From Yuukianura sp. NJ FZ-2021 (taxonomy: Eukaryota): a stretch of 64,000 bases of DNA. This document shows, one piece after another, positions 563-26,935 of this stretch (positions are counted from its first letter, which is position 1; every line of letters starts with the position of its first letter). The position numbers were made by a program, and so were the translations under genes. Where the stretch lies: contig CM102284.1 in assembly GCA_046563655.1 (NCBI GenBank), positions 2,852,001-2,916,000 of the forward strand, in the 5' to 3' direction. The notes beneath the pieces are model-generated. The model saw only the letters and a list, made by a program, of their open reading frames with translations. It ran no database searches and was not told the origin of the DNA.

Positions 563-3500
563 CTACTCTTCGTTTCGCCTTTGATTTTTATTTTCAATAT
601 TTCTAGCCTTCTCAACCTCGTACACGTCTCTCCTCGTGTTGACAAGTTCAACCGCTTTTTCAATCGCTTGTCGAGCTTGCTGTGGAGTAGTGGTGTAGCG
701 CTCTTTGCCACCTAGTATTCCCTCGATAACATGTTTCTGGTCCTCAAGAAGTTTATGCGCAATTCGTTCAGCTCGTATTGGGTACGGAGTGGAGTAAACA
801 GTGTTTAGGTCGTAGACATGGTCATCATCTGTGTTACGCGTGTTTTTGTTGGCAACTCCTTGAACATATGTCTTGGGGTCTTGAACAGTTCTTCCTATCT
901 TGATTGCTCCCTCGTCAATGCCTTGGTGCGTATAGCTGTACAGCGATCCCTTCTCGGTTTCACCAGGACTTAGAGGCTCGTCCAAGATTTTTTCTATTTT
1001 CCTCATTGTTTCGTCTGAGATTACTAAATCGCCACCCGCAGCGTCTGCTTCATTCCGCTTTTCTGCCAATTCGGCTTCACGTTGTAGCTGCTGTCCTCTA
1101 ATGGATGATTTTCTTATTTCGCGCTCTGTACCACCCACCATTAAAAATTTAGAGGCCTCTTCCGGATACCTATCCTTCATCCACTGCTCATTGTTATGAA
1201 TTTTCTCAAAGGTGGCGCCACTCTTTAGAACAACCCCAGCCGTTTCAACACGCATCTCCTCTACACTTTTTCCTGCTAGGTGCCCAAGGACTGCATAACC
1301 ACAGTCGGCTCCCGTGCTGGTGATATCGACAAACCCAGATCCGTCGTTGGTTTTGAGACGGTAGTGTCCCACTTGCTCTCCAGGGGGCGGTGGTTCATAA
1401 ACAATTACTTGACAACCGGAGTCAATTTCCTCTTGCGTTTGTTTGTAGTTGGGATCCTCAACAATTTTTACGTTCAAGCCTTCAGCATTTGCTGCCACAA
1501 TCATCAAGGCAATGTCGGCAGGAGCACCGTCGAGAGCGGCTAGAGCAGTTTCGGCTGTCTTGGAAGACACTGGAGCCCCTTCACTGTTGCCAGAATTGAC
1601 TTGTTCTGCGGCCTCTCTCGCAAGTATTGCTGTGTCTCTTCGCTGATAAGCAACAGTGTAGTCCTTTGCGTTTGCAAATATTTGGCTAGCGATTGTGACC
1701 GGTTGGTCATTTTTGGCAAGAAATTCCTTTTCTTCATTTGTTAACATACTTGGATCTTTTTCTTTCAACTCTTTTACTCTGTTTTGGTCTGCTCCACTCT
1801 CCGCTTCGTTTACGAGAAACGCTTGTTGCAATTCCGCTGAAAGTTTGCCAATAATTTTTCCGCCAAGTTTTGACATGGTCGGAGAAACCAAGTGACTGTT
1901 GGCTACTTTGATTATGTGACCGGTGATGAGGTCTACAACACATCGTTTGATGATGCTCAAGTCACTCTGTGACGCAGTTTCAAACGACTTTTGAAGTTTC
2001 TGCAGTTTTTCGAAAAACTCTTTTACGTTTTTATCAGATGGTTTTGCAATCAACTCAAAATCGGTTTCTCCACCAGGCTTAAGTTCAATTTCGCCTGCTT
2101 TTTTCTCAGCTTCATCTCGACTAATTTGAAAGTGGGTTTGGAATTGGAGGGTAAAATTAATCTGATCTTCTGCTAGTTTGGACCGAATTTGATTGAAAAC
2201 CTTGTCAATGGCTTCATGGATCTTGTAAATTCCTTGAACGGCGCCGGCAAACGCTATTGGCGCGGAAAAGGCGCCTCCTATGAAGTTCGGATTGGAGAAA
2301 ATGCCTGTGCAGAGTGGAGCACCAACAGTGTCCCAAATATCTCCTTTTGGATTTGTTGTAGCAGAGACAATTCCTTCAATTTTTGCTTTTAGTTGACCTC
2401 CGCCTGAACTCTTTTTGTAGTTATCCAGTGCCCAGAACTTACTGAGCAGGCGCCGCAGTTCTGCGTTTCGAAAATGATCTTCCACTCGAATTCTTACCTC
2501 CGTTGCAATTGTTTCTCTCAGTTGTTCAAAACAGAAATTGGTCAAATTGTCCGTTAAAGCCTTGAGGCCAATTCGGCCAACGTTTTCGCCGGCTGAAACT
2601 GCAATGGTTTTGACGGCCAATGAACTTAAGTTTTGGCCACTTGCTGTGACAGTTGCAGTGAAAACTTGTTCTGCGGCAGCTTCCGTTGCTTTTTTGGTTA
2701 CAGTTTTGCCAAGCATCTGAGCTCCTTTGGCTCCATCTTTCAAACTGCTCAGTCCCAAAGAAAACGCGGAGATGGCCAAGCTCACAGCTTTTTGCTTTCC
2801 ATATGACGACCAATCGAGTTGACGCGACTGATATGAAGTCCAAGCATAAGTGAAGTCTGACATTCCTTCTGTAATGAGCGACATGCCAAAAGAGGCGCCA
2901 AAACCAGTCGAAATCAAAAACCCGCCTGCGGCTACTTGTAGAGCTGCGAGTGCACATAACGATGCAATGCTGATCCATGGAATAAACATGTCTTCTGAAA
3001 ATGAAATTAGAATAGAGAGCCCTCTAGCGGATAACTGTTGAATCTCGGCCAGTGGAAGACAGTCTTTCATGTACATTTCAAGCAGTTGCTGAGCCTTACT
3101 CTGCTTCATATCTTCTTGTCTGAGGTCTGCATGTGACAGAAGGTCTTGGGCACTTTTGAAAGTCAATCCAGTTACGTCCATGGTGAATCCAATGTTTAGA
3201 TTTCTTAAAAGCGGAATGACGGACCGTGCAATAGAGTCGCTCAGATCCTGGAGTCTGATCACGTTTTGCTGATAACATGACAACAATGTCAGCCAGGATT
3301 TCAAAAGTTCTGCCTTATTTTTCTCGATGCCATTCAAACTCAAGTTGTAGCTGCTGACCCCTGACACGCTCTGACAAATTTTGGTGACCTCGTTCAAAAT
3401 CTCTTTCGATCGGAGGTCAACGCATTTGACAGAAATTAGGGATTGTCCTATACTGGTGAGTTGAGTCGATCTTTTTGTTTCATCTGAGCTTAAAATTTGT

Positions 3501-6500
3501 GTGGTGACCTCTTCTGGTGATTTGGCTCCAACAGATTTAAATTCAACACAAAGTCCAAGCGCATTAAATTTCGGATCGCTGACCAATTTTACAAGATTTT
3601 TCGAGGGACCGATGACCTCTAGGTCAAATGAGGTCACTTTTGCCGATAGCAGTTCCAGTTCAATCAGCGATTTGGTACTTTCTGGAAGCAGTTCGAGTCC
3701 CAAAATGTCAATGGAAAGCTTCGCTTCATTTTTGGACCACAATTCTTGGTCCAATTCCTTACTGTCAAGGATTTTCGCGAGGTCACAAGATGCACAGTTG
3801 AGGTCAACTTTGAACTTGACTCCGCTCCACCACTTCTTTACGTCCATTGGAACTCTTCCAGCTATTCTGCTCTCTCCTTTCAGATTTAAAGTTTGGATGG
3901 CTTGGTCAACACTGCCCATATCAGACAGGACAGCGAGGTCTCTAAACGTAAATGAGAACTGGTCAAAATCTTTCCACTGTTTGATTGACCTGGTACCTCC
4001 ACGTATCAACGTATTCGGCATCAAAACGGTTACACGTTCATATATGTCCGTGTTTTTCGTTTTTGAATGTTTGTCTACACGAATTCTGGTACAATGGACT
4101 CGTCGAAGTGATCGTTCGATGGCATCGATGTTCATGTTAACAGTGTTAACAAAAGTACCGATGAGGTTGGACTTTTCCGTTAGTTGACAGAAGAGTGGCG
4201 ACTGGTCGTCTGAGAGTTCCTGGCGCTCAACCAGCGACTGCGCAACAGTGATCATAGCCATTTCGTCATACAGCAGCGCAAGAGCATCACGGTATAGCCC
4301 GACTGCCTCCTCTTTGTATTCTCCTTTGGCAAGTCTTAAGGCAACAGAAGCCAAACCAACAATTCCACCAGCGGCAAACTGCCTGTCAAGGTCAACAGCT
4401 GTTTGAAAGTACAACTTCGCTTTTTCAAAGTCTTTTCCTTGGTAGTACTCGTGATGTCCAAGTTGGATAAAATAGAAACAGTTTTTGCCGCATTTGAGTA
4501 AATTGAATATGCCAGAATCAACTTCGTTTTGCATGGAAGATTCAAATTCTTCAAAAGCTGGAAGAGAGTTTTCCAACGGAATGATTCCATCATCAACTTG
4601 GCGTAGGAACATGGCCCACCTCTCTTCTACGGATTGAAGGACAGTTGTTTCAAATGGACCGAGTTGATCCCATCCAAATTGTTCTTTGAGATTTCCAAAC
4701 CAACCGCACTGTTCTTTTAATTTCGAGCGCAAACGACTGTAAAATGAACAAAACTTTGAAAAAAGTTCGTCATTTCGCTGAATTGATGGAAATTCTTTGG
4801 ATTCAAAACTTCCGAGCACTTCGGCTTCACCGGCATCTCGCTCGTGTCGAGGATCAACTCCTTTTGCAATTGTGGTTGAAGTTGGTACGCAAATTATAAG
4901 CTGTCCGCTACCTGTTTTTGGAAGTAAAAAAAAGTTTTAAAAAGATTAGAAGAAATATTAACGTGTGATGCAAAATTGTTGTAGTAATAACGATAATTAG
5001 TATAGAATTACCTTTATTTCCTTGGCGCGAAGTTCTTCCGAAAGCTTGTTCTTCAATCCTTTGACTCTGTGGAAGAAAAGTGAGACAAACATGTAGGCCC
5101 CCCTTGCCTTCGATTTCAAGTGTCTTAATGTCCGTTCCTCTTCCCGCCAAATTTGTGGATACAATGACATCTCCTGGATGAATTCTCTCAATTTGAGTTT
5201 CGCTTTGACCTTCATCGCTGTTTTTGGTGTAGACTTTGACCTTGACCTTCGTTGTACTTAGTGCTTGGCTGACAAGTTCCGCTTTGGCAATTGTTTCACA
5301 AATGACCAGCACTCCTCTTCCTTTTCCAGTTTCCTCCAAAGTAGAAATGACAATTTCCCGCATCCATTCCTCTTCTGAGTCCACGACAATATCCGGAAAT
5401 TGTCTGTAGCGTTTGAACTTTGTTTCCGGTAAAGTCAAAAGCTAAAAAACATAAAACAGAAGCAATGATGGGAAACTTAAAAAAAATGGAGAAATCATAA
5501 TTAATGCACAGCATTTTTTCAGCACAGATCATGTACCTTAACGTTGTAGATTCTGTACATAACTTCTCTGCCCTTGGTTGACCCCAATGTCCCCGTGAAC
5601 CCAACGACATTTGACCCGTATTTTTTGAACATGGCCAAATTTGATAGGAAATTTGTAGTAACCGTCTCCGGTTGAATTTTTAGTCCATGCTTCAATCCCA
5701 AAAATTGATGAAGCCCGTTGTTCCAATTGGTGTTACCCTGGACAACTCCTGTAGTCTGAAAGTCAACTGGTTTTATTTGACCTTGGTCGACAATGTAATG
5801 CACGTTTTCCTCATATGCCAATGCCGACAAGGCACTGTCCACCCACTTGGGAATTTGGGCCATTGCAAATGGTTGGAGAAACAGCGGTAGCTTGACGTTA
5901 GCTGACTTGGATGCTGCATCTGGATCAATTAACGCCCTCGCATAGTTCACAAGATGATCTTTGATGTAAGTTTCAACGGATTCAATGGGATGAATCCTCG
6001 CTGCGGCCAAATCCTGATTGGTTATGATGTAACCAAACAGATTGTCTATTCTTCTGGTTTTATTTGTAGTTTGGTCAACATAGTGGTAAATTGGTGCTCC
6101 AGAAGTTTTGTCCTTAGACAGTTGGCCTTCGAGATAGTAGAAATCTTGCGCAATAGAGTAAAGATGTGTTTTGAGATACCCAATACGATCCCAAAGGAAG
6201 TGGTAGATGATTTCCAGAAGGTCCATCCCGGGTAGAGTAGAGCTTAACCGCGCCAGCTTCGAACTGTCATCAATCAACATTGCATCAACTTCATCGACAA
6301 TGGCAAAGTCTGGTACTCGGTATCCCATTGTTCCGAGATCGCTGTACTTATCTCTCAAGAAATCGAATTGAAACTGAGAACATTCGCCATAGACAATGGA
6401 ACGACGGTAACAAGTTTTTTCACCTTTGACATATGAATTTCCCTTGTCCCCATTGTGGTCACATTGGATTCCAAAAATGTCGTAAAATTTTTGCCATTCT

Positions 6501-9500
6501 TTTGCATCACGTTCTGCCAGAACAGGGCTGCTAGTGTAAACATCTACGTTGTGACCTTCCAGTGCTTTGATTACTGACAATACGGCAATTATCGCAGACT
6601 TCCCGGAGCCAGTCGCCACCTATTGATAAAACAACATTAACAAAACCAATTAACGTTTTACCATCGAATATCCTGGTTAAAATATCGAACTAAGTGTTGG
6701 AAATTATCGTAAGGTGTGTTGGTAGGTGGAATGTGGTAGATAAAATGTAGAATGACGTAGATTTAACGCGTTATGTATTAGATGGAATGTGGTAGATAAG
6801 ATGTAGTATGTAGTAGGTGTAATGCTGTAGTATATGGAATGTGGTAGATAAAATGTAATATGTGGTAGGTGTAAATGCTGTATGTAGTAGGTGGAATGTG
6901 GTAGTACAAATATGGTAGGTGGTATGTTTAATGTGGTATGCACTATAGTGCATACTACATTAAACATACTACCTTACCCATAAACTAGTTTATGGGTAAG
7001 GTGTAGTAAACGGAAGGTGCTTTACATTAGGTAATCGGTGGAAGGTAGTTTACAACAACCAAACTAAACTGTTGCGAACGTTATATATGTCATATATAAA
7101 CTTCGGGTTGGCTAACCTGTTGTAGTTGACCTTTGCCTTGATCTTTTTCTAATTTTTGAAGCGCCAACAGACAGGACAGTATCTGAACGTATGTTAGGTC
7201 GAAATTTCTATGAAGTTTCATCGCCTGCTTTGCCACAACCATCGCCTCCAGGTAGAATTCATTTTTAGAAACTTCTTCGGCACCATCTTTAACTCCAAAG
7301 TTTCGGTAGCGCAGGCGACTTGCTTCTTGTGTTAAGCCTTTCACGGCTTCGGTTGTTTCTTCGGAAGCTTCCATTGTATTGCAAAGTAGTTTTGCTTCAT
7401 CTGCCACAGCTTGAATTGAGTTATCCAAAATTCCATTCCGTTTGTACAGATATTTTACCGCGGTTGCCCAGGCATGAATACTCGAAATGTCCCAGTCACA
7501 AATTTTTGTTTCTTCAAATACAAGCGGTTTGTAAATTTTACTGAAAGTGTCTCCGTTTCGGACTTGCAAAATTTTCAATTTCAAAAAATCGTACTGGTAG
7601 CCCGCTTTTGCAAATCTTTCTCTAAGACTACTCCACTTATAGGAGGTTCTAGAATTGGCCAATCGAAACTCTTTGACGATTTGTTCTAAGTCTTTTGCTC
7701 CGTATTTTCCATCAAACACGCTTTCGCTGATCAGCGTATCGACCAGGGAAATTACGTTTTTCGACTTTTTCTCAGTTTCAAGAGCTGTGACAATTTTTGT
7801 AAACAGACTTGGGGTGACCTTGTACTGACTTGCTTGAAAAATGGTGTGCTCAAAAGCTTTGTGAACGGCCAATTTATTTCGCTCGGTTTTGTTTTTTTCA
7901 ATAGTGAGGTCCAGGAGCTTACGTAAATCCGCCACCAAAATACCATTGGACAGAATCATCTTCAAAATTCGTTCAATTCTTGGTTTTCTGGGCGTTCCTG
8001 GTGGCAGCATGCTCAAGATGATTTGCGTTTCAACCAAAATTTTTAGTTCATCCGGTGTGAAATGGCGTGGTTTCAATTTTGGTTTTAAACTTGAAAGTAT
8101 TCCTGCAACTTTTTCTTTTGTTACATGATTTTCAAAACAGGAAATAAGTGCTTCAAGACTGGACACATTTTGAATTTGTGTGAGGGAACCGCCAAGGGCC
8201 ATGGCCATGTCGATGCCCACAATTGATACGAGTCGTTCTGAGAATATTTTGATAACAGCGGGCGAAATTTGAACTTGGAATTTGCTCTCAAGCAGTCGAA
8301 CAAGCAGAATTTCTTGAGTTTCTTGTTCCCAGTTTTTTTCAAATTCGGGATCTTCCAAAACGTTCAGCGTCTCCATTGGGGTAAGTTGTGACAGTGTAGT
8401 CAAAAGGACAGGAACCAAAGACTTTGGAATTTGAGTGCACTTGAGTGAAAGTGTTTGTAGAAAGTAAAAGAACGCTTTCTCAGGACATTTTGAACCAATG
8501 TCATCCAGTAACCCTTGCATTCGAATTTGCTCGTCAATTGAATTTGTGAAGGTAGAAATAAAATTGGATCTCAAAAGAATTTGTCCCCAATCGTCTCGAT
8601 TTTTTCCGCGCAAAGATTTGAGGTCCCAATAGTTGAGGCTGTAGAGAAAATTGAGAAATTCTGCAACAAAAGTTGTATCTTGTGCCAATTCCTTTTCAAT
8701 TACAACTGGATCTTCCGTATCAAAAATTTCACCGAACGTAATATACGCAAGTTCTTCCATATTTAGCATAAAGTCATGCTCAAATTTTTCAATTTCCTTC
8801 AATTCGTCCTGTTTTTTCTTGTCCACTTTCAAATTTTTTACTGGAAGACTGGAAAGTGCTTGCATACTGAGTTTGCGAAGAATTCCCGTTTTTGCATTTC
8901 CCGCCCCTTTGAGCTCTTCTGTCATCAGTTGAACACAGTCGTAAGTGATAAAAGGCTTTCCAATGTCACTCTTACATAGGACTGAAAATGTTTCCAGAAT
9001 TTCAGCTTTTCGTTCAATGGAACATTTTTTTTCGGTGTAAGTTTTGGTCAAGGCGCGAATCAATCTTTTAAATTCTCCCTTGTAACCGCCCTCAACAACT
9101 TTTCTGTAGGCTTGAAAAACAATCAGTTGAATTTTTGCAGAGGAATCTAGCAGAGCCCCTTCGAGGATTTTTCCTGCCTTGGTTTTGGAACTCTCGTCTT
9201 GTGGTAGCGGGAATTTCAAAATGTGACGTGCTGTAAAATATGCAAGATTTGCCGCGCTTTTAAGTGACCCAAGATCGGTAGATAAGACTTTGTAGAAATG
9301 TTGTTTTCCCATTTTCAAGTTATCCAAATAAGGGCTGACTCCCTTAAGTCCTTTGTCTATTTTCTTTCCTTCCAAGGAACACTCAAATTCAAGCGCTGCG
9401 ACGATGTGTGGGTCGACGACGTTTTGCTGCTTCGGAATTTTCAGAATCAAGTCTTTTGTGAATTCCGTACATGTTTGAAGGTAGTGAACCATTGTGCGGG

Positions 9501-12500
9501 AAAATTTGAATCCGTGGTCAAGTATACTGTGGAGTATACTTTTAGTAAGCAATCGAACCTTCTCAAAGTCTGAGTTGTTCACCATAGCAAGCGTTACAGC
9601 TTCGTAGGTAGCAGTTGGAAGCTTTGTTTTTTGAGTATAGTCACTCAGAATCTGAAGTGCTTGAAGTAAGACGTCTGAATTTTGATTGGTGGAGAGCAGA
9701 ATCTGCATTCGGGTTTGACATGGTCCACTTTGGAAGAAGTCGTGGTCTTGCATTTGGAGCAAAAATGGAAGATCAGCTAGGAATTCTTTATCTGTTTTGT
9801 TTTCTAGGTTGGACAATTTGAGCGTTGCTTGAAGTCCCAAAGGCAATTTTTTCTGGGTTGACAAAAATTCGGCGATTGACGCCTTGACGGAAGCGGAAGA
9901 AGCAGGACGTCTTTGAATTTGAGCGAGAAGTTTGAAATCTGAATCGTCACAAAATGGCGCTAGAAAACAAAATTCAAAGCGTTAATTGTGTAATTTTAAT
10001 TTTTTTGTATTGTTTAAGAGTGTCGCCATGCATGATTACATTTGTTATAAAATTACATCAAAATTAATATTTTCTCAAGTATAAATTCATAATTCCAGAC
10101 TCTTCCAAAACCGTAAAATTTCTTAAACATTTTCACATGAATAATCTTACCGGCATAATTGGCGTTGTTTTCTCCACCCGTCGCCTTGTTAAGGGCAATA
10201 AATCCATGTAGACCTGTTTCCAGTAGTTGTCCATTTTCTTCATATAGAGCCATGACAAAAACTTTTTTCAATGTAGCCTTATCCAAGTCTAATTGTTCTC
10301 CACAGTTAACTAAGCTTGAAAGTGCTGCAAGGATTTCAAGACGTTGCCGATGGTTACCGGCATTCTCCGGAATAAATCCTTGGCAGAATTTGCTCATCAC
10401 TTGCTCAAGCTTTGAAAATTTTCGGTTGTTTTGAAGAAGTTTTGTAAGAACTGCAAGAATTGTCTGGTTGACCTCATCCGTGTTAAAGATTGTAGCAAAT
10501 GACTGAGAGCAAAATTGGGAAATGAGTTGATCCAAATAAGCTGGCGGCAGAGTTTGATTGTTGTCAACCAGCGCCAGAGCAATTTTTGCCAGAGTTTTGA
10601 CATTCTTTTGGCGTTCAAAAATGGTTTCAATAATTTCCGCAGACAGTGTTTGACCATTTTCAGCAGCAATGGTAAGTGCTTGGAGAGCCTTCTCAGAGTA
10701 GTCCTTGAAGGAGAGACTGGATTCCAAAGCAAAAAGTGTTAGCGGAGACGCCATAATTCCTTGACTGGCAGAGTTCAAAAGTGTTTCAATCAAATTCTGT
10801 TGAACGGTTTTTGAATCCTTGTGTGGCAAAAAATTCTTCATTAATTCTGGAAGTTGAACCGGGCAATTTTTAATTGATTGTGTTTGCAGCAAGAGACGCG
10901 CCGAAGCAAAGTCGAGGTCAAAATTTACAAAAACGTGATCAGCAACATCTTGCCCAAAAATTGCAAACATCATGATCAGAAAATTGGAGTCGTTGTCGTG
11001 CAAATTTCGGAAAATGTGTTCCACTACGTTGTCACTCAATGGGAGCCCAAGCTTCACAGTTAATGCAAAAATAACCTGCAAAAGAAACCAAGATTTTTAT
11101 ACAATTACTGTCAATATTTCGCAATTTTTTCTTCTAAAAGAAGCAGAATTAGTGATAAAAGTAAACTAGAAGAATGTATTTAGAAAACCCGGTTCAAATT
11201 CAATTTCTGTATTGTTAATAAAACATATCTGACGCAAAGTATACATCATAAATTCAAATTCAAATTGAAAAAATGAATTTGCTGCAGGACAGCACAAGCG
11301 TAAAGTAACCCAGCGGTGGCAGATTGAAAACAGTCAAATTACCCGAGTCGAAAGTGGCAACTGTGCTTGGTTAGACAGGAAAATATTTTCCACGGCTTCT
11401 CTACAGTAGTTTGGCACTGTTTTTGGAGATTTTGTAGCTTCCAGTTGTTTCAGAAGTATTTCCAGCGTAGGAGTGACGACACTTTGTGATGCATCAGCAG
11501 TGTCGCTTAAGTTGAACGTCAGAAGCTGGAAGACCAAATCAGTAAACGTCACCAGACTAGCCTGTGCTTCTAGAACAGACAGGATGCATGGGTTGACAAA
11601 CGGTGTAAAATCCTTGTCGTCAAGAATTAATTTTTCGAAACAGTAAACTTGTGCAAGCCAGTTGAGGTCAAACGAAGTCATCGGTTTTCTAGGGAAAATG
11701 AAACTTCATTTAAAATCGTTTTTGTGCTCATAAAGGTTCAATTCAATTTTGTTGTTTTTTTATTTCTTACGACTTGGCATATTCATTCTGAGCAAGGGAA
11801 GTTAAGTAAGCTCCGCGGCAGTGGATCTGGAATGACAAAATATTTTCAAAGTCATTAGAGTTCTTTCCACAGTAAATAAATTAAACGCATAGTATCACCA
11901 CTACGCAAGGATTAAGTAAAAATTCGCAATACAAACTCAAACTCAAACCCAAAAATTGAGCGTTCCAAACAATTCTTTTTTGCTGAAGAATAAAGAATCA
12001 ATTTTTGGAGCTATCAAAACAAACTACACATGCGCGTAAATTTTAAGTTAGTACCTTGACATCTACCACACTTTCCGTTTCTTCTGCAAACGGTTGAAGC
12101 AAAGCGAGTTGTGTTTGGTCCAACGTCTTTCCCGCCATGACCACCGTAAACAAACATTCTGCACACAAAATTCTTGTGTTTTTGTTGCGACTGGACTTTA
12201 GTGCTTCCAAAATATTTGTAAATGTGGTCTCCCGGCATTTGAAATTTGTCATATCCTTGACTTGTTCTTTCAAATAGTGAAGTAAAATGTGTGCAGTCAT
12301 GTGAGACACATAAGTAACACCTTCTTCAGCCGGTCGAAGGTCATCTTCTTTGCCATCACCCTCAGTGCTCAAGTGAACTGTTCCGTACTCGTCAACTGTA
12401 TCTTCCTTCATAAGTCGGAAAGACAGAAGATCAGCATTGGGGATTTTGATTTCATTTGGAAACTTGATGACCAAGTTGCCCAAAGAAACTAAAATGAGAG

Positions 12501-14477
12501 CTTCCAGTTTTGGATTTTTCTTCAAATTTGAAATTCTGATAAGAAAATTCAGCAAATCATCTGGTAGCGCCTTCGGCTCAAAATTTTGCTTGTTTAAAGT
12601 TTTCAAAATGGACTCAATAATGGCCTCCAAAAATGGAAGTTCTTTGCCATCCCATTTTTTGTCTTTCTTCACAGCATCGTAAGCTTTGGTAAATGCACCA
12701 AGCCACTCTTTGGACAATCCAGGGCTGGATTCGTGCTCAAGGTAGTCACATACTATTTGACCCACTTGTGTTTGCATTTTCTTTGCATCGGCACTACTAG
12801 CGTCTTGTGTCGTAATTTTGAGAAGTTTTTCAAAAAAATTCTGCTTTTCCTCAAGGTCGTTTGCTCTTTGTTCGATGTTGGCCTAAAAAAAATTTAAAAA
12901 AACATCACTTAAAAAATGTACTCAATTTTTTGTAAAGTATTTTTTTCAGAAATAATTTTTGTTTCTAGAAAAAAAAAACAATAATCTTTTTCGCTAAATA
13001 ATACCTGCTCAGCAATATATTCCAAATGTTGTTCATAATTTTCATCTGCTTCTTTTTGCTTGTTATTGAAGTATTTGCACAGAGCTTCAATTGACTCGGC
13101 AAAAGTTTCGTGAAGATTGTTGTCATCTTTTTTGAAAATTCGCCAAAGAATTCTCCGCATTTCTGCATTGCACCGCTCTTCTTTCCTGAACTTTTGAAGC
13201 AGTTTTTCTGATTTAGTGGGCAGCTGGGATCTCATTCTACACTGTTCCAACGTACGGAGCAGCGTAAGCCTTCGATCAGTTGCAGGCGGGTCTAACATGA
13301 AGTCGGTCAACGGATACTCCGTTAGCGCATCAATAATGTTATCAGGAATTACTTGTTGTTCGCTAATTTTTAAAAAGGCTTTGCCAATTTGGGCTCGGGT
13401 GAGTTCCGGCATAGCGCCAGCAAATCCAAGTGTGATTCCCCAAGCAATGAACTTATCTTTAAGATAAACCATGTCGTCGTAACAGATTGGTTGTCCGCTA
13501 TGGGCTTGATCGTAGAGATAACTCACTTCCATTCCCGTCGTCCGCCAATAGGATCGCACGCTTTCTCCTTCATTGCTGAGTGTTGGAGTCAATTCTAGGG
13601 TTTGATTAGTCCCGCGAACTTTTCCTCTGGAACTGTTTAGTGCCTTGGCAAGATTGATAGCCTCAATTTCTTCTTTTTCTGACACATTGTGTTTGTATAC
13701 AGTCGTAACCGCTTGTTGACTCTTGACAACGTCTGCCCTTTGACCTGACTTTTTAGTCACCTCATGCACATGCGTCAACACACCCGATCCCGTTTGAAAA
13801 ACGCTTTTTTCACTTTTTTCCAACTCGTCCGCGTAGTAATCCTTATGCTCTTTGGCTTTTGACTTTCCCTTGTCCTGACCTTTTTCTGAAAAATCCGCGG
13901 CAAGGCCGAGTTTCACTAGTTTGGCATGTAAGAGAGACGACGTCTTGAGGTCAACTTGTGGAAGGTAGCTCTTCACATGCGAAATCAGCTTAGAGTCGCA
14001 GTTGTCATGGGTTAGCGTCATTGTGATGCACTGGATCAGCTGACTCAAAATGGCGTGGCAGACAACGTCATCCTTGCCTGGACCTTGGTTTTGTTTTTGA
14101 ATTGTCGAAATGTGCTTTAAAATTTTAGCTGGGTCTAGGGCAGTTTCATTATACGCAAGTGAGTACTTGAGAGTTGTGGCAATGTGATACTTTGTTTCCG
14201 CAGTTACGTTAGGTGACTCAAGAAAAGCACAGATTGACTCCAGAATAGACAGTGGAAGGCCGTGACGACGCGCGAGGTACTTGAGCAGTTTGATGACATT
14301 GCATGAAGCACCGTCGTCCAGCTTCCAGCATGCGTCTAAATGGATTGTGTTTTTCGAGGCATGCGCAGTCCAGAGCTTTTGAAGCTCTTGATAGACGAGT
14401 GAACTGTCTGAGGCGTGGACGTAAAGATTGAAAAAAGTTCGAAATTCTTTTGCAAAGTCCATTTTCTCCAGGCACAT
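563..14477 (-). CDS. Giant (~4110 aa) SecA-like ATPase protein with N-terminal helical repeats and a C-terminal hydrophobic hairpin, permuted OTU-like protease and T5orf172/GIY-YIG-like domain; 9 coding exons
   Basis: Hand-spliced exons with GT-AG boundaries and matching phases: 14477-13005, 12882-12055, 11826-11771, 11688-11343, 11075-10151, 9959-7117, 6619-5537, 5441-5012, 4911-563 (12333 nt, divisible by 3). SecA motifs: QVATGSGKS, LAERDA, FQFDFLRD, AIVDEVDAMLID, WNNGLHQF, GFTGT, STNLAGRGTDI, GGLHV, QAFGRTSRQGNKG. The start could be ATG 14477 or 14462; a likely 5'UTR intron lies at ~14501-14881. Confidence 0.85.
6712..6960. repeat. Degenerate intronic minisatellite or low-complexity repeat (GGAATGTGGTAGATAAAATGTAG-like units)
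   Basis: Recurring ggaatgtggtag(ataa) units at ~6729, 6784, 6836 and 6892 inside intron 6620-7116 of the SecA-like gene. Confidence 0.7.
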
Positions 14478-16995
14478 GTGCAGTTCGGTTCTGTAGTTTC
14501 CTACAATTTCAATACAAATTCAAGTCTATGAATTGGCTTTACAGCATAATGTTTTTTTTTACAATTTTAAGATTTTTTATATTATGACAATAATTTTGGA
14601 ATATTCTTAATCATGGTTTAAAATTAATTGTTGCGAAGCCTGCTACGTGACCTCCGCCACAGAAATAAGTTTTCATGATATTTTCCAAAAATAATTGAAC
14701 CAAAACGATTGAAATTTTCTCTGAATTAAGCCTCACTTAATTAAATTAAAAGTTTATAACTTCTTCAAAAATTGATATTTAATATCAATCTTAGCGCCTT
14801 AAAATGTGAACCGTCATAAAAATTTTAAAGTATTTTACAATTTTTCTTTCATAAAAAAGAGACAATTGAGAAATCACTTACAATGTGTCAAGCACGACAC
14901 CTTTGGCTTCGACTTTTTTTTTCAATTTTAAACTGCAACCTAGTACTATGACCACTAGCACTAGGTTGACTAGGTCAGAAAATTTTGGACGTGACCCACT
15001 TCACATTCAGTGTTTAAATAGAAAATTGTCCATAGAATTCAAACAAAGTGCTTCTTATACGAAAAAAAAACGTTTTCTTAGTTCTTACTAGTGATAGAGT
15101 TTGTTTTGTTCAAGAAAAGAGTCATGGCAGTTTAGTGGTTGCTTCTAAACTGACGCTGTTGTACATCAGTTGGCATAACTTTTAGTACAAGGCCACTTGA
15201 GAAACTTTCAATATCTCATCAGACGCAAACAATTCTTGGAGATCATTTTTCCACGAAGCCGGCTGGACTTTGCACCAACGTCTGGTATAGAGCCAAACCC
15301 AGAGCAAAAAAAAGCAGTTCAACTGAACGGCAGTTGCAGAGATTGAACTTAAGGCTTCGCTAAATTCGACGGAACGATTCGGATTTCAGCTGAAATCCAA
15401 ATTGTAAAGATTGAAATAAAAATTGTTAATACTAGAAACTTCAACATTCGATTCAATCAAATTGCAATACCATTTGCTTTTATTAAATTGATTAAAATGT
15501 TGTTCACAGAAGAAAGCGTATTGAAAAGTGGATGTTTTTTCATCTTTTGCTTATTTCTATTTTCTTTGCTATTTTTCAATTTTTTGAGATTCAGTTAACT
15601 TTGTTGTGCGTTAGAGGAATATTTTGTTTAATTCCGAAAACCGAAACCCACTTTACAAAACTTTTTACTCGGATTTGAATCAGGGTTCAAGCCCACACCT
15701 AAACTGGAGTTCTTTGGAATAACCTTGGATGTTGGGTGGTGTGAAAATATTATTTGCTTACTTGTTGCTAACTTTAGAACTCTTCGTAGAAGTGAGGATT
15801 TATGGGACAATAGCGAATGGGGTCAGAGCAAATAAAAGTGTCAGGTCACGTCACAGTTATAAAGTGGCTAACTTTGCACTTTAACCTCACTTTAACACCA
15901 ACTTTTGATTAGAATATGAAGACTTGCTGGTATTTGCAATAATATCGAGTTACACAATGTGTGGAGAACTATCTTATATCTTATTATTATTTTTTGTAGT
16001 CTTATTTTTTTCCGGGAGCTTAACGGATTTATGTCCTCCGATTTTTTCGTTACATTTAGAAAATGAGTTATTTTAAACATTGTACTAAAAGGACTCTAAG
16101 CACCATTACTGGATTTCACTGACGCTATAGTTCAACAAGGCTCGTAAAAGTTAAGCTGCGGATTCAAAAAAAAAAAATTCTGACAAGTATGTCTGAGGCG
16201 AGCATGCTTGAAAACGCGTACAAGGCACATGCTACTGCGAAATCTGTTGTAAGAGGAAAAGCCACTTGCGATCATTAGCAGGGTTTTAAGTATTTTTCAT
16301 GTTTTTTCGAGTTTCTTCAAAGAGCAAGTTGAACAAATTAGTGAGTTATTACATAGAATTAGTATATTTCATTTACTTCTTTGCAAGTTCAATCGTCAAC
16401 TAGAGCATGATTGACGGAACTAATACATAATACTAATAACCCTCGGAACTTTATTGATTGTCTTTGCTTTAATATATGCAGACTTCAACCTGATTGACGT
16501 TTTACAAAAGTTAAGAAATATAACTTCTACGGAATTGAAGTTTTCGAAGTTATTCACTATTCAACGTTTCACGTTAATTACAAAACTAGAACCAACTTCC
16601 AAGTTTGAAAGATTTGAAATCCTGTAGGATTTCAATGTTTAAAATTTAAAAAAAAAGTGCGGCAAACTCTTTCACAAGCGAAATATATTTCGCACTGATG
16701 GAAAACAACAAACAAGCATCATAAGTATTTAGAGTAAGCCCTAGATTGTATGAAAGACTAAGAATTCAAGCAGTAATAAGCAAATTACTAGATCTAGAAT
16801 CTAGATCACAGCCTTATGATTTCCTATTTAAAGCGACGCTTGGATAAAGTTTAATTAGTTTTCATTTTTCGGATATGTTTAATTAAGTCTGAAAAACACG
16901 CTAAAAACATGTAGTCGTGTTTTTTTAACACGCACACATTTTAATTTTTCACTGATTAGTACATTACATTATTTGGTGCTTTGCAGCAATTTATA

Positions 16996-19504
16996 ATGTT
17001 GTCAGTGGCACTTCTTTCAACGGCAATTTTAATTTGTCTTTTCTACAACTGGTGGAACCCGAAGAACTTGCCGCCTGGTAAAAACTTTATTTTAAAAATT
17101 GTTAGAAAATAACAGTCAATTATAGTGTTATATTTTTTTAACATGGAAGCCGTGATGACAAATGTTTCAATTTGCACAGGTCCAAAAAACTGGCTTGGCG
17201 TAGGAGCTGCTGTGAAAGTGTGGGGTACAAATTTGAGGTTTCCACATCTCGCTTTCATTGAACTTGCCAAAAATTATGGTGACATTATGTATGTTTCGTG
17301 GGGTGTTCACGACACAAGTAAGACCAGCGTATTTTAAAATTGCGTTTAAAAAGTAATTTTGTCATTAAAATGTTATTTAATTTTTTAATTAATACAAACG
17401 TTAGTTTATTTTATTTTTTAAAGTTGTTATTAACAAGTTTGAGGACATGAAGGAGCTGCTAACGAAGCATGAGTTCCATGCTCGCTATGAGTTTGACTAT
17501 TTGAAAGACAGGGCATTTGGAAGAGAGCTGGGTAAGTTGAACAGATTCACTACGACTTCAAAATTTAATTAGTAATACAAATAATCTTATAAAACTGTAC
17601 GAATTGAAAACCTGTCACACGATTCTTCAATGGCCATTTTTGTTTAATTTTGCAGGGCTTCTATTTAGTAGTAACAAACTTTGGAGCGACATGCGCCGCT
17701 TTTCGCAAAAACAACTGTCAAATTTTGCATTAAAAAAATCTGAGATTCTTGGAAATGCTATTAAAGACGAATTCTTGGATTTTGCGGCTGCTATAGAACA
17801 ATCGGCAGAACGCAATTCTGGGTTAATTACAATTGACTGCACGTTTGATAAAACAATTACGAACATTCTATGGCGACTTCTTTTTGGATTTGAGTCCGAA
17901 GAATGTTTAAAAAAGGTTTACAAAGTCACGGAAGCCAATGAAAAACTGATGAAGACGTTTTCATACAAGAACCTTGCGTTGCCGTATCCGTGTCTGCGAA
18001 AAATATTTCCACGTCTAACAGATCACTATAACAACATGAAATTGTTCAAACACAGTCAAGACACCTTCCGCGTAAGTTTCCGTTCAAATTTTTAATGATA
18101 ACGCATACGTTGACAGAAGTAATGTGTAGTGTCTTATAAGGCAAATGTTTGGTTGATTTATGTTTACGACGAATGCCAATGTTGCCAGATACAAAACCAA
18201 CTAAAGTTAAGTTATGTAGGCAACACGATGAGATATTACAATTTTTTATTAAATAAATATTAACAAAAAATACTTTTATGCTCAACATATTTATAATACA
18301 CAGGAACTCATCGAGGAATCTCGGAAAAGACAAACGATAGGAGAAGTACCGCTTTCTTTTGTTCAAGCATTTACAGCAAAAATTCATGAAAATCTTAACG
18401 TTGATGCATCACATTTCACAGGTAAAGATTACATGCTTTTGGTCATAAGTGCATTCATGTGCATTTTTTTAAATAATATATGAGTAGGTTTGATAAAGAA
18501 TAAAAATGTATACAAACTGTACAGTTTACATTGGTATACCATTTTAATAAGATTAACAATGTTTCTCCCAACTAACGTAAATGTTTGTCAGACTTTATAA
18601 TTGGCAAAACGGCTAATTGGTAATGCTAAAACTGGTTTGTAGATGACAACTTGCTGATAACACTCCTGGATATTTTTTTGGCGGGAACTGAAACGTTGAG
18701 CAGATTCTTTGATTACGCCATTCTGTACTTAGTGATTCGGCCGGATGTTCAGGAGAAAATATTGGAAGAAATTTATTCCATATATCCAGACGGTGGAGTT
18801 CTAATTTTATCCGACAGTGACAAAATGCCGTACACCAGAGCCGTAATTCTGGAAACTTTGCGTTTGGCAAACATCATTCCAATGCCTACACCACGTAGAG
18901 TCATTGTGGACTACGTGTACAAGGGATATCATTTTCCGAAAGTAAGTACAGTCGAAGTACAATTATTACAATATTTTCAAAATAACTATTATAAAAAACA
19001 TTGTGCTATGTTATTCATAGCACAATGTTTTCGTTTTTTTCGTTTTCTTTTATATTTTTTTGTTTTAAGGGTGCTTGTATAGCTTTCAACTTAGTTGGTG
19101 CACTGAGGGACCCCACTTACTGGGGAAATGACGTAGACAAGTTTTCTCCTGAGCGTTTCATTAATCCCGTTACCGGAGGAGTGATCAAGACAGATCGCGT
19201 GCCCGCATTTGGATTCGGTAATGTAAAAAAAAAAACTTAAATTTAAAACATAATATGCTTTAAATTTAATTTTAATTTTAAATTTAATAAAACTTTGCTG
19301 AATAACGTTTTTCTTTCCTCAGGGAAAAGAAGTTGCTTAGGGGAAACTGTTGCAAGACAATCCGCGTTCATTTACCTGACCGGATTGATTCAAAAATTCA
19401 AATTTTCACAGGCGCCAAATTCTCCTACGTTGGAGCATAATTCTCTGCCTGGGTTTACGTCAAGACCACACCCTTTCGACATTGCAGTTGCAAAACGACA
19501 CTGA
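16996..19504 (+). CDS. Cytochrome P450, CYP2 clan, multi-exon
   Basis: N-terminal anchor MLSVALLSTAILICLFYNWW then LPPGP, I-helix FLAGTET, ETLR (ExxR), PERF, and heme motif FGFGKRSCLG split by an intron at ~19218-19322. Confidence 0.93.
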
Positions 19505-20094
19505 TCAGCTTACTGCTACAGATGAACTGTTTAGTAAATCAGAGTAGTTGAAATTTTTTTAAATGAGTTTAAAGGGAAGGAGGTGTTATTAAATATTTTA
19601 AAATATTTGTTGCATTCTAAACCGCATTTGGTACCTATGATTCCTTTCCAAAACAACGATTTTATTACTGCGCTGGTAAAGGTTGAATCTAGCTGTAGCG
19701 CCTTTAATAATACATTTTGAAACAAAATAAAATGGATAAGAGCAGTAGAATTTCGACGGAAGTTGCAAAACGTCTACCAAATTTTTCCATCATATATTTT
19801 CTTGAATCTTGCAAATGCTTTAAAATCATTAAACCCGAACAAAATTCTACGAAGTTCTACCGCACCTCTCTACGAAATTCTACGAACCGCATACTGTTAA
19901 CCGGAATCAAGGCAGGATTTGGTTTAGGAAAAAGTTGCAATAACTTAATAAAAGTGGTTGTATTACTGAGGACTCTTGCGGATTTCCGTGTTTATGCAAA
20001 GTTCAGTGCGAGAACTGAAAAGTTCTATTAGTTTAATCAGAAAATAAATAAATATTAAACATAAGTTACATAGAGAAAACTCTTGCTTTTAAAA

Positions 20095-23000
20095 ATGATT
20101 TTGGCCTGTGGAATTGTGTTTTGTTTAATGACACCAGCATTTACGTCGGACTCTGTCAAAAGAGTAAGTTATCGAACTGGCAACTATAAATTGATTAACC
20201 AATTTAACATTTTCATTTTTCAGGAAACTGATTTCGTCTTGGAAGGAAGCTCGGACTATTTTGAATTATTTGCACCGGAGCCATTAAATACGAAATGTGA
20301 GTTTAAAACTTTCAAGGTATCCCACGCTACGGTAGATCGTACAACTCTCGTCAACTTCCTCCAGAAATGTCAGCAACTCACTGAAGTTCAACTGAAAAAT
20401 ATCAGATGGGAGTGGGATAATAGCGGAGTTACGCAAACAATTCATCTTCCAGCTTTGAAAAAATTTGAATTTGAGTTGTTTGGTGATGCAGCCCTAGCCT
20501 GGAAATCCGCCAGGGATATTGAATCCATCATATTTTTTCATGTTAAGCCATACACAAAGGGCGGTTTCAAGGAGCTGTTGAATGTGAACTTTAGTATTTC
20601 CGGTAGAACTTTGGAAGGAAAACTGCGGCTTACAAGTGGGGGTTTGGTGGAAGTCATTGGAATTAAAGACAAGCATGTCTGGAACTTACTTTTTGAAATC
20701 TGGGGGTCCTTTACCGCCTTCAGTTGTACCAATTGCCTATTTGATCTTTCAAAACTGGATTTTGCGGAAATGACCTCAATATATCTCAACACCAGCATCA
20801 CAAGTGGACAGTTTGAAGACGTCTGGAAATCTGCACACAACGTCTATGAACTGACTTTTTTACCTCAAAACGAAACAAATATTAATCTTTCGTTGTTATT
20901 CAAAGAACGTTTGACAAAACTAGTTGTTTCAAAAGTAAATTTTTGCGAGAATTCAAAAACAGAAACACTAGAAAACCGGCCTTATACAAACTTCGCTAAA
21001 AATCCAAATAGTATTAACGGAAATTTTGAATGCTCGCTCAAAGTATTTCAAATGTCTGACCATCAGTTATGTCGATCAACCTTGGTCCGCTTTCTTCGAG
21101 ATTGCCGTAACTTGAATTCCATTAAGCTCCAAAATGTTACTTGGAAGTGGGTTGCACACCTTGGGAATCAAAAAATTCATCTTCCACGTCTCAGTGAATT
21201 TCACTTTGATCTGAATCCTGATGAGAGCTCAGCATGGAAATCGAGCGGGGATTTTGAATCTATTGTATTCTTTCACAAGAATTCAAATTCCAAACATGGA
21301 CTTCTGGAACTTCTGGATCTTAGTGACTTCTCTATTGTTGGAAACACTGCGGAGGGATTCCTAAGTTTGCAAAATAGAACCCTATGGGCAAATCAAATTC
21401 GAGATCAGAAATTTTGGATTCCTTTATACGAAGTATTACCCACTTTTGTTGAAGTTACAGCTTCAGAGTGTGTTTTGGACACGGAAAAATTAAACTTAAC
21501 TTCAGCAAAGTCTCTACAAATGATCGACAACCAGTTGCAACATGGCCGAATTGCGGATATTTTAAAAACGTTGCCAGTTGTGGAGATGTTGCAGATCACG
21601 GCGTTGGAGGATGAGGCAGTTGACGTTGCCTTACTTCCCCGACATACGCTCAAAAGCGTTCAAACGAAGCGAATGAGCTTCCGCTGGGCTTCTGACCATA
21701 CGCCTATTCATTTTCCAAGGCTTGAATCACTGGAAATGGTCGACGGTGACCTAAATGTGAACTTGTTTGGTGTATCAAAGGAGTTCACGAAGTTGGAATT
21801 GCACCAAGTGGAGCTTATTTATAGCAGTGTTGCAGACATACGCAAGCGCATGAGCAATCTGACGCAGTTGAATTTTTACTGCCAATTTTTCAAAGGGTCT
21901 TGCCCAGAGTTCAGGCTGGGTACACTCCCTGAGTCAATCACTTCACTCGTTTTGAATAACGTCAAAGTTACTGCAGGACAGATCCGTGCATACCCAAACC
22001 TCCAGCAAATTGCCTTCTTTTGGTGCAATGTAGACCGCGACATACTGTGGAATTCAGTGAGGATGTTCCCGAATCTGGACCTCATTGGCTTGTCTGTTGA
22101 GGATGTACTCAAACCAGGAGTATTTGAGGAAGTACTCAAATTGCCAACACTTGAGAACTTGCTCATTGCCATTGGCCCAGGAACTCCACGCCAACTACGA
22201 ATGAAGCTTGAGTCTACTATAATGAAGTACTTGGGAGTCAGTCCACCAATAGAGAACCACGCTGTGGAAATCAACGTCCGTTTTACTAAAGAAGGTGATC
22301 AATGGAACTACGCAGTGCAGGATTTGGGGCTGCGGAGAGAATATCGCGTGTCGCAACTGCTAACGCTGTTTGGGATATCTGAAAGAAACATTACCCCGGA
22401 GACTCTGCGATTGACTTACGTTATTTACCTAGCGGTGGTGTACTCTCTGTGCACCGTTGGTTTAATTGGTAACAGCCTGAGCATGTTGACGCTTCTGCGC
22501 AAGTCCATGCGTGGATCAACGGCTTACGTCATGACTGCTTTAGCCCTGAGCGACTCACTGTATTTACTTACGACGTTTTTTAGTGCTGAAGAATTCAAGC
22601 TTCTATTCTCGTTTGGTGTCGTCCGATCCGCGTTCAATGGTCATGTCGCTTATCCGCTAAACGGAACAGGTAACACACAAACTAGTTTTCACTATACTAT
22701 ATTTTTTAATAACTTTTATTAGCAATAAATAAAAAAAGTCTACATTTATTTATATATACTGTTGTAACATAGAAATGCAAAACATTTTTTTTGTTTTCAG
22801 CCTACACTGTATCGGTGTACCTAATAATTTTGATCACAATTGAACGATTTGCTGCCATTTGTTTTCCATTTGAAGCCATTCACCTGTTCTCACTCGTCAA
22901 AACGAAGCAATACTGTTTGTGTGTTTTTGCATTTGCGACGGTTTTAAATTTTCCAAAGTGGTTTGAATTTTTCACTTGGAGCTATGCGGCGGAGTCCATT

Positions 23001-25426: not shown

Positions 25427-26935
25427 ATGAAACTAACTATATTAGGTGCCTATTTTCCACTATTATTTGCGGTTGTTGCAATTTGCGAAGATCCAAGGAA
25501 TAAGTGTGCTTTCTTCAGAGTCTGTCTAATTTCAAACCGTGTGCCAAAGGACGCAGTTGTCTGTGACAATGACAGATTCAGTGGAAGTAGCAACGTATCC
25601 TACGATTTCCTCAACTACCAATGGAACCTCTTTGGGCAACGCATTCTTCCTCTGGGCTACTTTCTTCCAGAAACTACATCTCAGATTCAAGTGGGCGTCA
25701 AATGTGCGTGGAGTCTTCGCATACACCTCGTGCCAAAGTCCGGTGGACACGACTATGGAAAATTCAGTTTCGGAGATAACAGTAGCATGGTGGCTGACCT
25801 TCAGAAAATGACTGATCTAGCAGTTAACACCATAGCAAAAACGGCTATTGTGGGACCAGGGTTTCTAAGCGGTCCACTTGCTGCAGCGCTTTATTCGAAT
25901 GGAAAGCTCATGCTTCCAAACGGTCTCTGCCCCACCGTCGGAATCTCTTACGCCCTAGGCGGCGGTTACTCGTTTCTAAGTCGACGCTACGGACTTGTGT
26001 TGGACAACATACTGGAATTGGAGCTAGTGAACTGGCAAGGCGAGCTTTTTGTGGCAAATTCAAAACTGAACAGCGATTGGTTTTGGGCATTGCGAGGAGC
26101 TGGTGGCGGATCTTTTGGAATTGTAACACACTATAAATTTAAAATTTTCTCTGCGCCGAGGTTTGTTGTTTACCGTCGACTGAGTTACGCTTTGGAGCAG
26201 TTTCCGACCATATTTGACTGGTTCCAAAAAATTGCTCAACAAAATCCAAGGTCAACATTGAATATCATATTTACTGTTTCAAAAACAGAATTGCTGGTAG
26301 AGGTCATCGACCTCCGACACAAAAATCAATGCTCTTCTAAATCCGTTGCTCAAAATGTGCCACTACCTAAATTCTTTTTCCACTCCAGTTGTACAGTTCT
26401 GAAGTTTAGAAACTATTTAAACACTGTTGGCGCTTATGGAACAGGCTCTGGCGACATTGCAAACGCTACGAGACATGAATACCAACCCATCTACTTCCGC
26501 GGTACATCATTTTACGTTACAAAGGTCATTGACCTTGAAAAAGTCGGTGACCTCAATTGGCTAATACAGAGGATTCCTGACTACGTTGTAGTTGAATTTC
26601 AACTTAATGGAGGTGCAATCAACTACATGAAGCCTTCCCACACTGCTTATGTCCACAGGAGTCAAAATATTTATAAGGTCAATCCAGACTATTTGGGCCC
26701 GGTGAACAGAACAACAGAGCAGGAAAAAATGGCGCTGAAATGGCAAAACGATTTTTTTAGCCTTACGCAACAAATCATGCGTCATACGGAATCGTATCAA
26801 AATAACGTTGATCCTTACCTTCAAAACTACCTTAAGCGATACTATGGGCAAAACTTGGAAAGGTTGATTCGGATAAAAAGGAAGTATGACCCCACCAACT
26901 ACTTCAAAAATCCGCAGTCTATTCCAAGGTTTTGA
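25427..26935 (+). CDS. Secreted FAD-linked oxidase, berberine-bridge-enzyme (BBE)/VAO family, intronless
   Basis: 502-aa ORF with signal peptide, KSGGHDY (FAD-His), GLCPTVG (FAD-Cys), FWALRGAGGGSFGIVT, and C-terminal BBE motif YQN..D...YYGQNLERLIRIKRKYDPTNYF. Confidence 0.93.
   Translation: MKLTILGAYFPLLFAVVAICEDPRNKCAFFRVCLISNRVPKDAVVCDNDRFSGSSNVSYDFLNYQWNLFGQRILPLGYFLPETTSQIQVGVKCAWSLRIHLVPKSGGHDYGKFSFGDNSSMVADLQKMTDLAVNTIAKTAIVGPGFLSGPLAAALYSNGKLMLPNGLCPTVGISYALGGGYSFLSRRYGLVLDNILELELVNWQGELFVANSKLNSDWFWALRGAGGGSFGIVTHYKFKIFSAPRFVVYRRLSYALEQFPTIFDWFQKIAQQNPRSTLNIIFTVSKTELLVEVIDLRHKNQCSSKSVAQNVPLPKFFFHSSCTVLKFRNYLNTVGAYGTGSGDIANATRHEYQPIYFRGTSFYVTKVIDLEKVGDLNWLIQRIPDYVVVEFQLNGGAINYMKPSHTAYVHRSQNIYKVNPDYLGPVNRTTEQEKMALKWQNDFFSLTQQIMRHTESYQNNVDPYLQNYLKRYYGQNLERLIRIKRKYDPTNYFKNPQSIPRF

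Follow-up and report, generated by a model that had tools for sequence, protein, structure and literature searches.

What is a T5orf172 domain doing at the C-terminus of a giant animal protein? The family has been described chiefly in phages, large DNA viruses and a few proteins of fungi, and its tested members there are site-directed nucleases. The question is raised by a stretch of 64,000 nucleotides from Yuukianura sp. NJ FZ-2021 (NCBI GenBank assembly GCA_046563655.1, contig CM102284.1, positions 2,852,001 to 2,916,000, forward strand), called the window below and numbered from its first letter, in which the original prediction, made from the sequence alone, placed a C-terminal T5orf172/MUG113 nuclease domain as putative effector at 640..955. 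We find that by Pfam's own cut-off this stretch is a T5orf172-type (GIY-YIG clan) domain, that it is the C-terminus of one animal protein of ~4,000 residues, and that, judging from its motifs, it keeps most features of the family without the usual arginine and is thus a real but probably altered member.

The strings on which the prediction was built, EKGSLYSYTHQGIDEGAIKIGRTVQDPKTYVQGV...HVYDLNTVYSTPYPIRAERIAHKLLEDQKHVIEGILGGKERYTTT, are present in the minus-strand translation at that site, where the tail reads EKGSLYSYTHQGIDEGAIKIGRTVQDPKTYVQGV...VYSTPYPIRAERIAHKLLEDQKHVIEGILGGKERYTTT, an exact match to what had been quoted. They belong to P0001, a stop-to-stop open reading frame (ORF) at 563..4936 on the minus strand with 1,457 residues (563..4819 from its first start codon), in which window positions 955..640 correspond to residues 1328-1432, the last ~100 codons. 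The frame continues for 25 residues beyond 1432 to a stop codon at 563-565, so that the domain does lie at the extreme C-terminus of its protein, as had been claimed. Our reference for its residues is Odn (Gp88) of vibriophage ICP1, a tested T5orf172 nuclease which no longer cuts DNA as the E180A variant (PMC8263062); this paper and bioRxiv 10.1101/2023.03.23.533998 treat T5orf172 as a GIY-YIG subfamily whose activity depends on E180. The parts of the domain are as follows.

656..943, minus strand: T5orf172 (PF10544) domain, P0001 residues 1332-1427, from Pfam, PHROG 681 and the ESM Atlas.
932..949, minus strand: GSLYSY, the first-strand 'GIY-like' motif with Y1333, placed on Odn DYLYVI by hhalign and by a hidden Markov model (HMM) derived from ICP1.
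887..904, minus strand: IKIGRT (residues 1345-1350), the 'KIG/YIG' motif with K1346 and G1348, placed by hhalign and the ICP1-derived HMM.
863..880, minus strand: DPKTYV, a helix start and the expected site of the family arginine, from hhalign and residue indices.
755..772, minus strand: AERIAH with E1390 and H1394, candidate equivalents of Odn E180 and H184, from spacing and the Pfam span.
695..709, minus strand: GKERY, an 'E-x-aromatic' motif with E1412 and Y1414, counterpart of Odn S-V-E-T-F by spacing.
566..655, minus strand: charged helical tail after the domain, running to the ORF end, with a helix predicted at a predicted local distance difference test score (pLDDT) of ~80 in both models.

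The family assignment is carried by the profile search. Against a curated PF10544 cut-off of 20 bits (profile length 101), the whole 1,457-residue ORF scores 22.5 bits (E 1.7e-4), a 333-residue piece 25.2 bits (E 2.3e-5) and a 145-residue piece 27.9 bits (E 3.5e-6), with the match spanning profile positions 3-99 of 101. A score of 22.5-27.9 bits is ordinary for true members of this loose family, because the tested nuclease Odn itself reaches only 33.3 bits and four ICP1 paralogues reach 29.5, 21.1, 26.3 and 25.4 bits. The domain is also matched by PHROG 681 'endonuclease' at E 1.2e-3, and 26 of its 30 nearest clusters in the ESM Atlas fall in the T5orf172/MUG113 set (top score 0.92, 172 shared features). 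The T5orf172 half of the original prediction is therefore borne out by the HMM search, and the MUG113 half falls short: PF13455 gives 13.1, 15.9 and 18.3 bits across the three contexts, all below its cut-off of 22.3, as a weak co-match over the same residues (profile 2-72 of 73). The GIY-YIG catalytic domain PF01541 does not list the query at E<=1 or at E<=10, and gives just 15.2 bits in one ICP1 paralogue.

The motifs were compared with the ICP1 genome, which was fetched and in which five T5orf172 paralogues were found and aligned (alignment A1). By hhalign IKIGRTVQDPK falls on Odn IKVGRSFDVEK, so that in the first hairpin SLY (Y1333) and IKIGRT align to Odn YLY and IKVGRS; I-K-x-G-R is invariant in all five paralogues. 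The same alignment puts K1355 on Odn K147, and because R148 is the next residue of Odn it falls on T1356. An arginine equivalent to R148 is present in five of five ICP1 paralogues and in both of the real bacterial relatives (L004 and L005), and in PMC8263062 the Odn authors call R148 catalytic and cite I-TevI E75 as the counterpart of the metal-binding glutamate. The claim that the arginine expected after KIGxT is missing thus stands, K1355 being the basic residue nearest to its position.

The ICP1 clade is too narrow for aligning the second half of the domain, and the alignments stop before E1390, which is a candidate equivalent of Odn E180 from its spacing and the Pfam span. Both proteins have four residues from this glutamate to the histidine (E180-H184 in Odn, E1390-H1394 in the query) and 22 to the glutamate of the next motif (E180-E202, in SVETF, and E1390-E1412, in GKERY); the distance from the glycine to the glutamate is 40 in Odn and 42 in the query, and that from the tyrosine to the lysine 11 and 13. 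A regular expression for these motifs was matched in 0 of 50,000 shuffles of the 188-residue tail, once in the six frames of the window (at this site), in three of the five ICP1 paralogues and in none of 120 other fetched proteins, counts which mean little, the pattern having been relaxed post hoc after a first version, with a hydrophobic residue at E+3, missed the site. When the Odn domain was used as a tblastn query it found 152 phage records, almost all from Vibrio or Aeromonas phages, and a profile scan of genome contigs returned four loci, two of them near ICP1 and two spurious matches of 15-20 residues. No second copy of the domain was found within the 64-kb window.

That the domain is the C-terminus of one ~4,000-residue animal protein follows from three observations: it shares a single ORF with modules upstream, a GT-AG intron joins this ORF to the exons before it, and homologues are collinear across the junction. 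The exon-like ORFs of this giant multi-exon gene of ~4,000 codons run on the minus strand from ~14,519 down to 563, in the following order.

7090..14519, minus strand: upstream exon-like ORFs of the same gene, helical and with no Pfam family, from the ORF list and tblastn.
5012..6619, minus strand: SecA-like ATPase exons (SecA_DEAD, SecA_PP_bind, P-loop_SecA, Helicase_C), from Pfam.
4912..5011, minus strand: GT-AG intron between the second SecA ATPase exon and the last exon, from the sequence as read and homologue collinearity.
566..4911, minus strand: last exon with TPR, hydrophobic segment, His/Cys module and T5orf172 domain, a 1,449-codon ORF with its acceptor AG at 4913-4912.
1142..1564, minus strand: conserved His/Cys module with H1191 and C1212, from alignment, jackhmmer and AlphaFold.
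1130..1141, minus strand: MVGG (residues 1266-1269), the end of the family-conserved core, from phmmer and tblastn.
950..1129, minus strand: charged linker of ~60 residues (1270-1329) from MVGG to the domain, with low-confidence helices and not conserved in homologues.

The SecA-like ATPase is spread over two exons (SecA_DEAD E 5.4e-29, P-loop_SecA E 1.8e-19), and removal of the intron at 5011..4912 splices ...GRTSRQGNK-G onto SGQLIICVP.... Across this intron the homologue P0003 aligns by tblastn with residues 1010-1147 at window 5429-5010 and residues 1147-1409 at 4912-4139, and P0005 is likewise collinear over the same junction; P0003 also maps in order onto the upstream ORFs, at window 10694-7111. 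The Pfam scan of the upstream part, which covered four ORFs and left out that at 11334-11705, found no family at E<=1 in the ORFs at 7090-9981, 12043-12882 and 12909-14519, and in that at 10053-11096 all hits lay below their cut-offs (best E 0.032). At the 3' end an AATAAA lies ~30 bases downstream of the stop codon. The GC and GC3 (third codon position) fractions of the domain, 0.467 and 0.429, are similar to those of the rest of the gene (0.40-0.49), and composition gives no support to a recent foreign insertion of the tail, a candidate that was rejected. Codon-usage scoring discriminated poorly between frames and was uninformative.

Among relatives of the ATPase exon, an uncharacterised protein from the tardigrade Paramacrobiotus metropolitanus ranks first (57% identity), followed by many rotifer proteins (Rotaria, Didymodactylos, Brachionus) and by further matches in Folsomia, Hyalella, Microctonus, Papilio, a fish and glomeromycete fungi, with bacterial SecA far behind; the records from tardigrades, rotifers, a collembolan, an amphipod, insects, a fish and glomeromycetes carry the label 'protein translocase subunit SecA' or 'unnamed protein product'. 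Among the 120 fetched proteins, jackhmmer found the His/Cys module (~150 residues) in five (P0035, P0040, P0078, P0039 and P0063). The conserved core ends just after it: phmmer alignments of the three longest homologues (P0035, P0078 and P0040) extend no further than P0001 residues 1272-1278, a few residues past 'FLMVGG' (1264-1269), and the tblastn alignment of P0035 stops at window 1103. Beyond the (G/A)G the homologues have unrelated tails of ~18, 32, 119, 176 and 274 residues with no Pfam family above its cut-off, and none of the five has a T5orf172 match.

Two of these tails deserve separate mention. That of P0039 (Rotaria sp. Silwood1) starts KEKGTLYGY where the query has TEKGSLYSY (window 932-955), after linkers of similar length; MAFFT aligns its EKG[ST]LY[SG]Y with the query, the remainder of the tail having neither a T5orf172 match nor significant similarity, and the tail could be either a degenerate relative or a coincidence. 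In the Papilio machaon homologue P0063 (residues ~1378-1778) the His/Cys module terminates in VKGG; an apparent degenerate second copy of its first half comes next, and then ~150 residues without a family. Further upstream in the last exon there is a strongly hydrophobic Gly/Ala-rich segment, MFIPWISIASLCALAALQVAAGGFLISTGF (P0001 residues 650-679, window ~2900-2989, minus strand, Kyte-Doolittle values up to 2.07). It sits in the part of the exon that is best conserved among homologues (P0001 560-900), and may be a membrane-inserting element; the corresponding region of P0039 has a sub-threshold match to Pfam Bac_thur_toxin (E 0.0012).

We think that these findings are best explained if the domain is a lineage-specific, nucleic-acid-directed end module with altered catalysis, C-terminal to a giant SecA-like animal protein, a reading to which we would give a little less than an even chance. 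According to this model, the protein would be composed, from N- to C-terminus, of long helical regions, the SecA-like ATPase, TPR, the conserved hydrophobic segment, the His/Cys module ending in 'MVGG', the charged linker and T5orf172, with the last of these a lineage-specific add-on to a core common to rotifer, insect and other invertebrate proteins. The domain would serve as the nucleic-acid-directed payload of the giant protein and most likely bind DNA, and it may be released by the upstream His/Cys module. Its catalysis, if any, would probably be poor, of a nicking type or non-canonical rather than that of a robust endonuclease; weak or non-canonical cleavage is to be expected because the Glu/His pair and the E-x-aromatic motif appear to be kept and the family arginine is absent. 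The term 'effector' used in the original prediction is one that we infer from the position of the domain and the variable tails of the homologues; an effector released after GG is plausible.

A number of results weigh against this explanation. A phmmer search of the tail against 1.84 billion representatives gave no hits at E<=0.001, and one against the 120 fetched proteins had no match better than E 0.3; tblastn against phages returned five records, all at E>=7 and in capsid or hypothetical genes. NCBIfam lists no family for P0001, PADLOC finds nothing in the tail and, in the last exon, just one unrelated weak match (E 0.015, residues 43-108), and the best match in a PDB sequence search is an irrelevant ABC-transporter binding protein at E 0.18. 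The alignments to ICP1 are themselves short: hhalign of the query against A1 covers 27 columns, the first two motifs, with a probability of 6%, and the HMM of the ICP1 paralogues gives the query 2.7 bits, again over the first motifs. T1356 (G+8) stands where Odn has R148, and T, Y and V occupy G+8 to G+10; nor is the domain basic, with 14 K+R and 15 D+E in 105 residues. AlphaFold on the single sequence gave a mean pLDDT of 53.6 with residues 1-79, the sheet-forming half, below 50, and on 333 residues (1125-1457) with five sequences the T5orf172 part was again below 50; three Foldseek searches, two with the 333-residue model (PDB and BFVD) and one with the domain model (PDB), returned nothing at E<=0.001. 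Finally, the variability of the tails is drawn from just five homologues with draft gene models. Word-indexed searches of longer proteins with P0001 residues 1100-1457 and 40-1250 also found no relatives, which is weak evidence. In the domain region AlphaFold predicted just the two helices that should follow the third strand. A PDB search with the A2 profile reached an intein at E 0.048, a match that fell in the unaligned tail and was judged irrelevant.

The first alternative takes the domain for a toxin with active, Mg-dependent DNA endonuclease activity, which the His/Cys module, acting as a peptidase, would cut free after 'MVGG' as in polymorphic or giant toxins of bacteria, and which would then kill a target cell or degrade the DNA of an invader. 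It draws on the module immediately upstream of the linker. In an alignment of the query with four homologues, P0063 being left out, H1191 and C1212 are invariant in five of five sequences, and the module ends in GG or AG in all six sequences compared. In the AlphaFold model the module reaches pLDDT 71-86; its His lies on a strand (model residues 67-71), and its Cys opens a helix (88-97). These are the positions usual for a papain-type dyad. The His precedes the Cys, unlike the papain-type order. Over P0001 residues 1125-1269 (window 1130-1564) the order of motifs resembles the C-terminal half of OTU followed by its N-terminal half, and the module might possibly be a circularly permuted OTU/papain-like peptidase.

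Such an arrangement would have precedents, since papain/OTU-type peptidases are proposed as processing domains and Tox-URI nucleases are known payloads of polymorphic toxins (PMC3482391), and SecA-like ATPases are described from giant toxins and effectors of bacteria (PMC8195603, PMC3482391); by spacing, the glutamate in the position of Odn E180 is also kept. Against it stand the loss of an arginine that is invariant in the clade of Odn and the weakness of the peptidase label: the OTU family of Pfam matches P0039 alone of the five members, at 18.8 bits with a cut-off of 23.3, the module's scores in the ESM Atlas are 0.83-0.84, and Foldseek of the module finds nothing significant, its best match being a NEDD8 protease at E 0.55. 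A permuted OTU-like autoprotease cutting after GG is accordingly a lead and not a result. There is moreover no secretion domain in the Pfam scan, no search aimed at signal peptides having been made, and the gene stops 560 bases short of the window edge, which puts the region where an immunity gene would be sought out of view. We regard an active toxin as unlikely.

We consider it equally improbable that the domain is a relic, that is, a T5orf172 gene of viral or homing-endonuclease origin which the host gene acquired at its 3' end and which is now catalytically dead, with no role or a structural or DNA-tethering one. The typical home of the family in phages and large DNA viruses, and its mobile homing endonucleases (10.1101/2023.03.23.533998; ESM Atlas taxa), would fit this origin, as would the lost arginine and the absence of the domain from all five homologues. 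However, the frame stays open for 188 codons beyond the conserved core, most of the other motifs are kept with the spacing of the family, and the tail resembles no phage record in tblastn; any capture would not be recent, because the composition of the domain equals that of the host gene.

Less probable still is a Pfam false positive, in which an unrelated alpha/beta-plus-helix region would by chance carry T5orf172-like motifs. The scores are just 2.5-8 bits over the cut-off, and this view takes for itself the empty searches for relatives among the representatives and phages, the lack of structural confirmation from AlphaFold or Foldseek, and the ICP1-based profiles that align the first 27 columns only. 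It has to contend with Pfam, PHROG and the ESM Atlas all pointing to T5orf172, with a match over nearly the whole profile, with validated members that themselves score no more than 33.3 bits, and with four motifs in the right order and spaced as in Odn.

The boldest reading, a self-contained, animal-made delivery toxin or immune weapon with the build of a bacterial giant toxin, in which the SecA motor and hydrophobic segment move or expose the C-terminus, a permuted OTU-like peptidase cuts after a ubiquitin-like (G/A)G and swappable payloads are released, here a T5orf172 with a non-canonical centre, we hold to be very improbable; if true, it would define a new eukaryotic polymorphic effector family, patchy in tardigrades, rotifers, arthropods and glomeromycete fungi.

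The altered end module that we prefer would be of interest in either state. If functional, it offers a natural experiment on how much change the GIY-YIG active centre tolerates, and a handle on the role of an undescribed giant invertebrate protein family, whether in immunity, conflict or DNA handling. If inactive, it is an instance of a nuclease fold turned to use in binding. In both cases the label 'protein translocase subunit SecA' on animal records hides a different kind of protein.

The remainder of the window is animal DNA, its neighbouring P450, GH18, receptor and decarboxylase genes being usual animal gene content. Cytochrome P450 exons occur in two places (17541-19082 and 54601-55209, plus strand), two GH18 chitinase-like ORFs at 28395-31057 (plus strand), an ionotropic glutamate receptor at 45440-47317 and a pyridoxal-phosphate (PLP)-dependent decarboxylase at 36768-37385 (both minus strand). 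An 879-codon ORF at 20083-22722 (plus strand) has no Pfam family except a sub-threshold G-protein-coupled receptor match at its end. At 25427-26935 (plus strand) there is one unbroken ORF of 502 codons with FAD_binding_4 and BBE (berberine-bridge-like) domains; this intronless oxidase is out of keeping with the surrounding intron-bearing animal genes, and might have been horizontally acquired.

How does this protein compare with known systems? A literature search limited to main texts found no paper on the animal SecA-like family or on a T5orf172 fusion within it; the domain family is known, and the architecture is previously undescribed in the literature searched. T5orf172 members comprise homing endonucleases and an anti-satellite nuclease (PMC8263062, 10.1101/2023.03.23.533998 and 10.1101/2020.11.28.402263), and recombination and restriction roles have been proposed for them (PMC7824862 and PMC4738411). 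MUG113 (PF13455), the fungal and eukaryotic branch, belongs to the same clan, with the query below its cut-off in every context tested.

The protein differs from ICP1 Odn in several respects: an arginine invariant in the Odn clade (5/5) is T1356 in the query, there is no detectable pairwise similarity, and the domain ends an animal protein of ~4,000 residues rather than a phage DNA-binding nuclease of 226-440 residues, with no N-terminal DNA-binding domain of the DUF6945, Bro-N or KilA-N type adjoining it. What they share is the Pfam family, with comparable scores for Odn and its paralogues, the order and spacing of LY, IK[IV]GR, E-x3-H and E-x-aromatic, the C-terminal position of the domain in a modular protein and a candidate glutamate for the essential E180.

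Among the polymorphic toxins of bacteria, nucleases of the URI clan are well established as C-terminal payloads (Zhang et al. 2012, PMC3482391). In contrast to those toxins the query gene is eukaryotic and intron-containing, it has no RHS or secretion-system domains, and it carries the T5orf172 branch, which has no mentions in PMC3482391. As in Tox-URI proteins, a very large multidomain protein closes with a URI-clan nuclease-type domain, preceded by a possible processing peptidase, and relatives have different tails. A second resemblance concerns the motor, since SecA-like ATPases occur inside actinobacterial giant toxins (PMC8195603) and Amoebophilus effectors (PMC3482391). Those proteins are bacterial, whereas the query family is found in tardigrade, rotifer, arthropod, fish and glomeromycete records; common to both is a giant protein in which a SecA-type ATPase is combined with TPR, peptidase-type modules (putative in the query) and a terminal domain of enzymatic type.

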